Source: Patescibacteria group bacterium
GTDB lineage: Bacteria > Patescibacteriota > Patescibacteriia > UBA2196
Reading direction: 5' to 3'
Length of the DNA stretch: 64,000 bases
Assembly: GCA_036845805.1 (NCBI GenBank)
Contig: DAIUDD010000001.1
Span: forward strand, 103,594 to 167,593
Each line of letters opens with the position of its first letter. The stretch's first letter is position 1. Below, piece by piece: positions 1,481-1,942 of this stretch. The notes under the pieces are model-generated. The model was not told where the DNA came from, did not search any database, and saw nothing but the letters and a program-made list of their open reading frames with translations. The translations under genes and the position numbers were made by a program.

Positions 1481-1496
1481 ATTTAACTATTTTTTT

Positions 1497-1518
1497 CCCT
1501 CCCCTTACGAAGGGGAGG
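1497..1518. repeat. Palindromic hairpin (CCTCCCCTT-ACG-AAGGGGAGG) at the 5' flank of the DUF559 gene
   Basis: Perfect 9-bp stem with 3-nt loop, immediately before the SD AAGGAGG of the 1536 gene. Confidence 0.55.
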
Positions 1519-1535
1519 ACTAAGGAGGGGTTAAT

Positions 1536-1922
1536 ATGACTGAGTTGTTTAATTTAAAGCAACAAACATCATTAAGAAAAATATTACGAACTAATATGCC
1601 AAAAGGTGAAAAAATGCTTTGGCAAAAATTAAGACGTAATAATATGGGTTATAAATTTCGTCGGCAATTCGGTGTTGGTAAATATGTGGTTGATTTTTAC
1701 TGTCCTAAATTATCTTTAGTTATTGAAGTTGATGGCTTAACTCATGATTTTAAAGATAGAATATATTCTGATAAAATTAAACAAAAATACATTGAATCAA
1801 AAGGAATAAAAATTTTAAGATTTAATAGTAAAGAAATTTTTGAAAATATAAATAGTGTTTTGGACCAAATATATTTTGTTTGCGAGGGGTTAAAAACCTC
1901 TCCCCAACCCTCTCCTTCGTAA
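1536..1922 (+). CDS. DUF559 endonuclease-domain protein (Vsr/very-short-patch-repair-like fold)
   Basis: VDFYCPKLSLVIEVDGLTHDF...GIKILRF matches the DUF559 core. Strong SD GGAGG sits 7 nt upstream. Confidence 0.75.
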   Translation: MTELFNLKQQTSLRKILRTNMPKGEKMLWQKLRRNNMGYKFRRQFGVGKYVVDFYCPKLSLVIEVDGLTHDFKDRIYSDKIKQKYIESKGIKILRFNSKEIFENINSVLDQIYFVCEGLKTSPQPSPS

Positions 1923-1930
1923 GGAGAGGG
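1908..1930. repeat. Palindromic hairpin (CCCTCTCCTT-CGT-AAGGAGAGGG) at the 3' end of the DUF559 gene
   Basis: 10-bp perfect stem. The loop CGT is the reverse complement of the 5'-flank loop ACG. The stop codon of the gene lies inside the hairpin. Confidence 0.55.
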
Positions 1931-1942
1931 GGGTAATCTTTT

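Follow-up and report, generated by a model that had tools for sequence, protein, structure and literature searches.

In E. coli, a repeat made of a C-rich arm, a loop of 3-6 nt, a G-rich arm complementary to the first, a linker of about 3 nt and a G-rich mirror arm was described in the 1990s as BoxC, and the same layout was described by Maher's group (Hoyne & Maher 2000) as potential intrastrand triplex (PIT) elements, both as cited in PMC4666352. The TMECO motifs of Holder et al. (2015, PMC4666352) are class II purine-motif intrastrand triplexes of the form CCCTCNCCC N3-6 GGGNGAGGG N3 GGGNGAGGG, with TTA or CCG as the second loop. In the single-stranded form, the E. coli motif folds in vitro to a triplex of high stability, as seen by circular dichroism and nuclear magnetic resonance; 3,610 copies were counted in 262 proteobacterial genomes, with high numbers in Enterobacter, Microcystis and Neisseria; and the copy number varies strongly among strains, with a raised local variability, which was attributed to replication stalling and repair. 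The authors state that mobility functions were never encountered near the motifs, nor were remnants of a transposase or integrase (PMC4666352). The words "endonuclease" and "ycjD" are absent from that article. In that work, the repeats figure as orphans with neither a protein partner nor a mobility gene, whereas in the stretch of DNA analysed here (the window, 64 kb with a GC content of 32%, from contig DAIUDD010000001.1 of a Patescibacteria group bacterium) two motifs of this layout bracket, as inverted ends, a gene of the DUF559 endonuclease family. On balance, we read positions 1498-1930 of the window as an autonomous copy of a selfish cassette that is widespread and has apparently gone unrecognised, which has triplex-motif inverted ends and encodes a nuclease that probably acts on them.

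The whole cassette (1498-1930, + strand, 433 bp) consists of a left triplex motif, the DUF559 open reading frame (ORF) and an inverted right triplex motif. On the left, the pyrimidine arm CCTCCCCTT (1498-1506), the loop ACG (1507-1509) and the purine arm AAGGGGAGG (1510-1518) make up a palindrome with a perfect 9-bp stem (1498-1518, + strand), which is predicted to form a hairpin in both DNA and RNA folds. After the 5-nt linker ACTAA comes the third segment GGAGGGGTT (1524-1532, + strand), which mirrors the purine arm AAGGGGAGG at 9/9 positions, the triads implied being G.G:C at six positions, T.A:T at two and A.A:T at one. This third segment doubles as the Shine-Dalgarno (SD) sequence, in that the SD region AAGGAGGGG lies at 1522-1530 and its GGAGG (1524-1528) stands 7 nt upstream of the ATG at 1536. 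The gene itself (1536-1922, + strand) encodes a DUF559 endonuclease of 128 amino acids (Pfam PF04480), a family with the Vsr fold and PD-(D/E)XK-like. On the right, the third segment (1895-1904, − strand; AACCTCTCCC on the top strand, GGGAGAGGTT on the bottom strand) falls within the last codons of the ORF and mirrors the bottom-strand purine arm AAGGAGAGGG at 10/10 positions; it is separated by a 3-nt linker (1905-1907) from the palindrome CCCTCTCCTT-CGT-AAGGAGAGGG (1908-1930, − strand), whose perfect 10-bp stem overlaps the TAA stop codon (1920-1922) and encodes the tail of the ORF, ...PQPSPS. Since the upstream third segment stands after its hairpin on the top strand and the complement of the downstream one stands before its hairpin, the two ends form inverted repeats of about 33 bp. 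The earlier note on this DNA had pointed to the left hairpin upstream of the SD, to the right hairpin over the stop codon with its PQPSPS residues and to the loops ACG and CGT, which are indeed reverse complements of each other, but it missed the third mirror segment that makes each end a three-segment triplex motif of the published class.

The two palindromes are the sole perfect hairpins of the window with a pyrimidine arm, a purine arm and a stem of at least 8 bp, and neither palindrome recurs elsewhere in the 64 kb, nor does the three-segment motif. The shuffled window gave zero matches to either palindrome, a full mirror match to either arm occurred 0 times in 200,000 random 35-nt stretches of the window, and Rfam had no match at 1490-1935, where only tRNAs were detected. 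Both hairpins follow the class II rule of fully complementary arms of 8-10 nt around a loop of 3-6 nt (9 bp with a loop of 3; 10 bp with a loop of 3), and both third arms follow the triad rule (9/9 and 10/10 allowed, with linkers of 5 and 3 nt). The sequence of the window arms, CCTCCCCTT and CCCTCTCCTT, departs from the E. coli consensus CCCTCNCCC. By their layout, the window ends belong to the BoxC/PIT/TMECO class, and the strands concerned may form triplexes when single.

The same architecture stands around DUF559 genes in many phyla, in keeping with the suggestion of the earlier note that the hairpin pair behaves as terminal inverted repeats around the ORF. We collected 80 related loci (35-55% identity), chosen by similarity to the window protein, the genome scan using a 9-sequence alignment of the family; they span Patescibacteria, Gamma-, Alpha- and Deltaproteobacteria-type lineages, Ignavibacteria, Bacteroidota, Nitrospira, Dehalococcoidales and others. 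Within 250 nt of the gene, hairpins with a pyrimidine and a purine arm number 3.8-4.3 per kb, as against about 0.1 per kb farther off. Such a hairpin is present in 74/80 loci, and the complete three-segment motif with a perfect stem occurs within 300 nt of the gene in 67/80. As a background, unrelated tyrS loci gave 1 weak motif in 387 kb versus 208 motifs in 700 kb of DUF559 loci. The outcome that the earlier note would have taken as a refutation, a palindrome confined to this site with orthologous genes lacking such hairpins or having unrelated flanks, was not obtained: within the window the palindromes are confined to this site, but the homologous genes elsewhere carry flanks of the same type. 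For 33 related loci, the distance covered by a canonical left/right motif pair is 423-668 bp, with a median of 448, and the window together with 8 of these 33 elements has reverse-complementary loops. Of the motif pairs that face each other, 31 with a spacing of 381-474 bp have the primary DUF559 gene between them; three more, with a spacing of 362-411 bp, have a second DUF559 copy there; and 16 of the other 18 pairs, which are gene-less, are 39-116 bp apart. No cargo other than DUF559 was seen among the motif pairs surveyed. It is worth noting that the neighbouring tRNA gene, to which the earlier note had drawn attention, is real in the window and is not general, since a tRNA gene lies within 400 nt at only 4/81 loci (the window, L008/L013 and L022); we therefore rejected tRNA adjacency as a targeting rule. 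Two ARAGORN calls on the minus strand, tRNA-Arg (L015 5354-5428) and tRNA-Asn (L042 5315-5404), overlap the DUF559 3' end and motifs and are probable false positives due to the hairpins. Carriage by phages was limited to 2 weak matches among 50,697 phage records.

On the strand running into the gene, each end is laid out as 5'-pyrimidine arm, loop of 3-4 nt, purine arm, linker of about 3 nt, G/T-rich mirror arm-3', the third segment being the purine arm reversed, not reverse-complemented, with A mostly changed to T (at related loci, for instance, AAGGAGGGG with GGGGTGGTT, AAGGGGGAG with GAGGGGGTT and AAGAGAGGGG with GGGGAGAGT). A mirror repeat of this kind cannot arise by duplication and inversion. 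The antiparallel correspondence G.G:C, T.A:T and A.A:T is what a purine-motif intramolecular triplex requires, and the following lines of evidence show that the three arms covary accordingly. First, a mirror match at k-1 or more of the k positions was found in one flank of 144/161 hairpins, the direct-repeat control giving 48. Second, the mean mirror-match score (the fraction of arm positions matched) was 0.945 for a hairpin's own arm versus 0.786 for the arms of other loci, the own arm scoring higher in 153/161 hairpins (Wilcoxon p = 2e-26). Third, in the 117 distinct motifs, G is answered by G at 709/717 positions, and A is answered by T 221 times, by A 133 times and by another base 14 times. 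Fourth, the left and right arms differ from each other in 30/33 elements and each end keeps its own three matching arms, which points to selection on the fold and not on the sequence. Among the same 117 motifs, the linker is of 3 nt (TTA, TTG, CTA or CTG) in 76 and is swapped for an insert of 12-26 nt in 13, this insert often being a small hairpin, which is consistent with a fold-back structure. The third arm faces the gene rather than away from it by 49:16 upstream and 55:18 downstream. The DNA fold computed with ViennaRNA, a program that does not model triplexes, leaves the third arm unpaired. We rejected two other interpretations of the arms: a G-quadruplex or i-motif built on the G-runs fails to predict the mirrored positions of the A/T interruptions, and a mirror repeat offers no rotational symmetry to a dimer that would use it as protein half-sites.

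The presence and absence of the cassette as a unit can be seen at the window locus itself, which lies, as the earlier note had placed it, between cobO (932-1480) and tRNA-Tyr (1943-2026). Using a scan with the neighbouring tyrosyl-tRNA synthetase (74-83% identical), we found syntenic relatives (L083, L084/L085 and L086) that keep the order cobO-tRNA-Tyr-tyrS-tRNA-Ala-tRNA-Thr and lack the DUF559 gene and both hairpins together, the interval from cobO to tRNA-Tyr being an AT-rich spacer of 3-125 bp. The same insertion occurs in two near-identical strains (L081 and L082). These empty sites contain no motif, which indicates that the cassette arrived with both its ends and not into a pre-existing doublet. 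Between paralogs of one metagenome-assembled genome (L063/L066, L045/L056 and L004/L005, each pair from one such genome), similarity of 79-94% runs exactly between the outer hairpin feet and the sequences are unrelated outside. The outer flanks are palindromic, TTT|...|AAA or AT|...|AT. In an Ignavibacteria genome, the whole cassette is tandemly duplicated at two loci (L024 4055-5522 and L025 4920-6159), the copies being 98% and 94% identical.

Gene-less derivatives of 85-160 bp with inverted ends are dispersed in intergenic DNA. In Sphingomonas parapaucimobilis (NZ_CP155755.1), a gene-carrying cassette (L168 19940-20385) lies inside the transhydrogenase operon, between pntAA and pntAB, and four gene-less copies of 124-126 bp occupy other intergenic regions within 40 kb; all share the termini AT|CCTCCCCG...CGGGGAGG|AT. 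This replicon is a plasmid by label, yet has dnaN, recF and gyrB. In Photobacterium sp. GJ3, an array of gene-less units of 148 bp follows the single gene, and a second array, of about 85% identity, lies 18 kb off. Motifs at a DUF559 gene, as well as arrays, are also carried by N. gonorrhoeae, from which the DUF559 structure 3HRL comes, and by a Pseudanabaena plasmid. The gonococcal arrays (NZ_CP119142.1, L166 10788-13043 and 20481-21175) alternate with a period of about 280 bp and lie next to and 7-9 kb from the 3HRL-homologous gene; this 2.17-Mb chromosome has been deposited as a plasmid. At another Ignavibacteria locus (L030 3694-4474 and 8701-9145), long alternating arrays with a spacing of about 82 bp flank the DUF559 gene on both sides and look like a tandem amplification of gene-less units. 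Together, the empty sites, the paralog similarity confined between the outer feet, and the miniatures and arrays uphold the proposal of the earlier note that this is a minimal mobile or REP-like (repetitive extragenic palindrome) cassette. The linkers resemble GTTAG/CTAAC, and we rejected the idea that the motifs are integron attC sites, the arrays having no cassette ORFs, no integrase being seen and the palindromes being short and perfect. On the plasmid CP101716.1 of Synechocystis sp. B12, which is rich in toxin-antitoxin genes, a DUF559 gene with one 5' motif (L165 17519-20207) stands directly upstream of a BREX PglX methyltransferase gene.

The window protein matches Pfam DUF559 (PF04480) with E = 7e-29 and 100.3 bits (gathering cut-off 20.6), its residues 9-116 covering profile positions 2-108 of 109; the other Pfam matches are MTES_1575 and DUF2726, and the Pfam search gave no match to the Vsr family. 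All of 32 aligned sequences, the window protein among them, share the residues D53, E64, D66, G67 and H70, which correspond to the Vsr-type active-site acids and histidine, a catalytic role being predicted from this alignment. The family profile matches 3HRL in the PDB with E = 4e-29 and, more remotely, the homing endonuclease I-Bth0305I (3R3P) with E = 6e-6, the window gene being free-standing, outside any intron or intein. There is also a match to the NCBIfam YcjD model (E = 7e-18, under that model's cut-off), and the defence-system models gave weak nuclease-domain matches only, together with the PADLOC homing-endonuclease model (E = 1.4e-4). The protein is under purifying selection, with dN/dS = 0.08-0.18 between paralogs within one genome. 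Many homologues start or end in translated hairpin arms (TSPSPS, PPPPPS, NPLLTKERAG, SPPYEGGE), so that the odd proline/serine/glycine-rich tails of DUF559 proteins are explained by translation of the motifs. DUF559 is also among the annotations enriched in predicted programmed-inversion targets (Milman et al. 2023), an enrichment that probably stems from the inverted motifs.

The motif and the gene also meet in E. coli, where TMECO no. 9 (1,351,204-1,351,239) lies about 170 nt from ycjD, a DUF559 gene whose stop codon overlaps a decayed motif that is followed by a duplicated fragment of the ycjD 3' end. In the table of PMC4666352, 4/5 of the E. coli inverted doublets have their third arms inward, like the gene-less miniatures. 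TTA is the commonest linker in our loci, as in TMECO type A, and both kinds of motif are intergenic, often arranged as inverted doublets and patchy between strains and species. The ycjD region (at least 80% coverage) is found in 3,377/5,426 complete E. coli genomes. An empty site at ycjD was sought and set aside, the strain examined having a different gene island after sapF and therefore no clean junction. In strain H28, the ycjD region shows an IS1 insertion and two DUF559 annotations. In K-12 (L163, 1346000-1353000), a palindrome with a 16-bp stem, cacctcattctgacaa...ttgtcagaatgaggtg, stands just upstream of ycjD and bears no relation to the triplex motif. Our literature search, which was incomplete, gave no article that connects DUF559 with the BoxC/PIT/TMECO repeats, so that a prior description is possible; to judge from what could be searched, this connection is new, the motif class itself being already known.

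From these observations, we propose the following pathway. A cassette end made single-stranded by replication, repair or supercoiling would fold; the DUF559 nuclease would recognise the fold rather than a fixed sequence and would cut at or near the outer hairpin foot; the break, or the excised strand, would then allow the unit to be copied to other AT-rich positions between genes, with no target-site duplication; and the gene-less miniature doublets (BoxC) would be mobilised in trans. That the locus is a selfish cassette with triplex-motif ends seems to us highly probable, while we give about an even chance to DUF559 being the enzyme that acts on the motifs. More tentatively, and with somewhat greater doubt than assurance, DUF559 cassettes may form a new class of prokaryotic mobile elements, in which the sole protein is a Vsr-fold nuclease, the ends are recognised as folded intrastrand triplexes and BoxC/PIT/TMECO are non-autonomous derivatives.

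Several points weigh against this proposal. First, we know of no precedent for a Vsr-fold nuclease as the sole enzyme of transposition, and the cleavage of the motif by DUF559 is something that we purely infer. Second, neither the 33 elements nor the window copy showed a target-site duplication at their outer flanks, and we saw no intermediate of excision or insertion. Third, the 64-kb window holds a single cassette copy and no miniatures, so that activity in this genome is no more than putative. Fourth, the triad counts follow in part from the rules built into the motif detector, the comparison of own with other arms being the non-circular evidence, and the sample of 80 loci does not represent all of DUF559. 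Fifth, the triplex was not seen in duplex DNA, nor by in vivo dimethyl sulfate (DMS) footprinting (PMC4666352). Sixth, the Caulobacter DUF559 protein VsrA is functionally linked to a cytosine methyltransferase and to cytosine-methylation-dependent DNA damage, and it causes SOS induction (PMC12907096), which suggests that members of the family may have repair-like roles.

This last point leads to a passive, host-side origin, in which the repeats would have spread otherwise (by replication slippage, recombination or a host factor) and DUF559 would be a repair-type nuclease that is linked to them or is mere cargo, acting in Vsr-like mismatch nicking or in the processing of triplex or hairpin obstacles. 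Besides VsrA, such an origin can draw on the replication stalling and repair invoked by Holder et al. for the variability of the motifs, and on E. coli, which has 23 motifs but one DUF559 gene, with a decayed motif only. It leaves unexplained, however, why DUF559 is the exclusive cargo of motif pairs about 360-480 bp apart, why the third arm faces the gene in the proportions given above and why the gene and both motifs are gained as one sharp-bordered unit; moreover, no methyltransferase adjoins the window gene, whose neighbours are cobO, tRNA-Tyr and tyrS, and the protein lacks the Vsr match. We therefore regard it as unlikely, though it is the alternative that we rate highest.

A serious variant of the selfish-cassette proposal keeps the nuclease active and replaces transposition by homing: a free-standing DUF559 enzyme would cut gene-less doublets, or the empty site, and repair would copy the gene from the occupied allele, the motifs being the recognition site or the homology arms and not transposon ends. 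The profile matches to the EDxHD homing endonuclease I-Bth0305I and to the PADLOC model speak for it, as do the abundance of gene-less left/right doublets as possible targets, the frequent position of new copies next to existing motifs (right-end/left-end junctions 9-149 bp apart) and the absence of a target-site duplication. What speaks against it is that the empty sites of the window's relatives contain no motif, that arms of 30-35 bp are short for homologous repair and that the Sphingomonas miniatures, with identical termini, are dispersed in unrelated intergenic regions, which calls for an end-specific mobilisation. We consider homing improbable, a little more so than the passive origin.

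The idea that the hairpins work at the RNA level, as 5' and 3' mRNA stabilisers, as a terminator or as a translational switch, of which the earlier note had offered mRNA stability and translation control as its second option, appears very improbable: strong RNA folds are predicted for both hairpins (-27.3 and -30.5 kcal/mol, z = -3.6 and -3.4), the SD is formed by the left third arm, a weak T-run follows the right hairpin and sense-strand T.G mismatches outnumber C.A ones by 20 to 7 in imperfect stems (a count made noisy by over-extended stems, on which we do not rely), but at the 3' end the antisense strand carries the three-segment motif, gene-less copies and arrays retain the full motif, as do the loci of Bacteroidota, a phylum that makes little use of SD sequences, the covariation of the mirror arms has no Watson-Crick or wobble explanation, and the SD, which the earlier note thought the left hairpin might sequester, is part of the separate third segment and is unpaired in the centroid RNA and DNA folds. 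In addition, as cited in PMC4666352, RNA is reported not to support purine-motif triplexes, and neither promoter nor terminator activity was seen with PIT elements. The hairpins of the proposed cassette would still form in the mRNA and may have an incidental stabilising effect there, as modelled folds suggest.

As for the surroundings of the window cassette, the left flank ATTTAACTATTTTTTTC (1481-1497) separates it from the cobO stop codon and the right flank GGGTAATCTTTT (1931-1942) from tRNA-Tyr, with no target-site duplication between the two. The 17-nt left flank has no convincing promoter of the cassette's own, from which we infer that the gene is probably transcribed by read-through from cobO, itself downstream of the C-terminus of a ribonucleotide reductase in the window annotation; tyrS follows tRNA-Tyr. 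A small hairpin, GAGGGGTT-AAA-AACCTCTC with one G.T pair, lies at 1884-1902 inside the last ORF codons and overlaps the right third segment, so that two adjacent hairpins could form at the 3' end of the RNA; it has no obvious conservation at other loci. Past the ribonucleotide reductase gene, at 820-880, are two hairpins, the terminator-like ggcggcacatcaacgtgtcgcc followed by a T-run, and TCCGGAC-TTTA-GTCCGGA at 863-880. In the closest cassette-less relative (L083 620-735), the tRNA-Tyr/tyrS spacer is of about 115 nt and carries the short GC-rich hairpins ccggctttagccgg, ggcgctttagcgcc, gtcctgataaatcaggac and cttcggctaaagccgag; the window is without these four hairpins, and its tyrS begins 18 nt past the tRNA.

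If the selfish-cassette proposal is correct, two orphans would explain each other. On one side stands DUF559, a nuclease family of great size and without an assigned function, to which E. coli ycjD and the solved structure 3HRL belong; on the other, the BoxC/PIT/TMECO repeats, which were first described some 30 years ago, form a triplex in vitro and are tied to genome instability, with no known origin or mobility factor. If such cassettes are moreover a new class of mobile elements, DUF559 would supply the enzyme that these repeats have lacked since their description in the 1990s, and its action would be the first natural protein-triplex DNA transaction to drive mobility. The link offers a testable model in the tractable E. 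coli and Neisseria, and a natural system for the recognition of an intramolecular DNA triplex by a protein.

Compared with other known systems, the cassette shares the logic of REP/REPIN repeats and their RAYT partners, namely short structured intergenic repeats in inverted doublets and arrays that flank a small gene for a putative mobilising nuclease. However, RAYT is an HUH Y1 transposase, to which the Vsr-fold DUF559 enzyme is unrelated; REP is a simple imperfect palindrome, whereas the present repeat is a hairpin with a mirror third arm; the DUF559 gene can be multi-copy and horizontally scattered; and it is the only gene found between the repeats. The very small size, the hairpin ends, the absence of target-site duplication and a plausible role of single-stranded DNA recall IS200/IS605, whose two hairpins are on one strand, without terminal inverted repeats, and whose enzyme is the HUH protein TnpA; the cassette ends are inverted, and the cassette has no TnpA or TnpB ORF. 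I-Bth0305I (EDxHD, PDB 3R3P) and Vsr belong to the same nuclease fold and superfamily, and I-Bth0305I is likewise encoded by a selfish element, but it resides in a group I intron and has an extra DNA-binding domain, whereas the free-standing window protein of 128 residues has neither; Vsr is paired with a cytosine methyltransferase, and the window protein, with no Vsr family match and no linkage to a cytosine-5 methyltransferase, is not a Vsr proper. The gene-less derivatives of 85-160 bp resemble miniature inverted-repeat transposable elements (MITEs), such as the Correia elements of Neisseria, by their inverted ends and intergenic dispersal. Of the features of classical transposons and MITEs, the cassette shows terminal inverted repeats (the left end being roughly the reverse complement of the right), presence/absence polymorphism and dispersed copies with unrelated flanks, but, in the 33 elements and the window copy, no target-site duplication; it differs from Correia-type elements also by having no DDE transposase partner and by the triplex signature of its ends. 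Together, these comparisons lead us to conclude that the system works like REP/RAYT, or like an insertion sequence with its MITEs, while sharing with them neither the enzyme nor the structure of the repeat.

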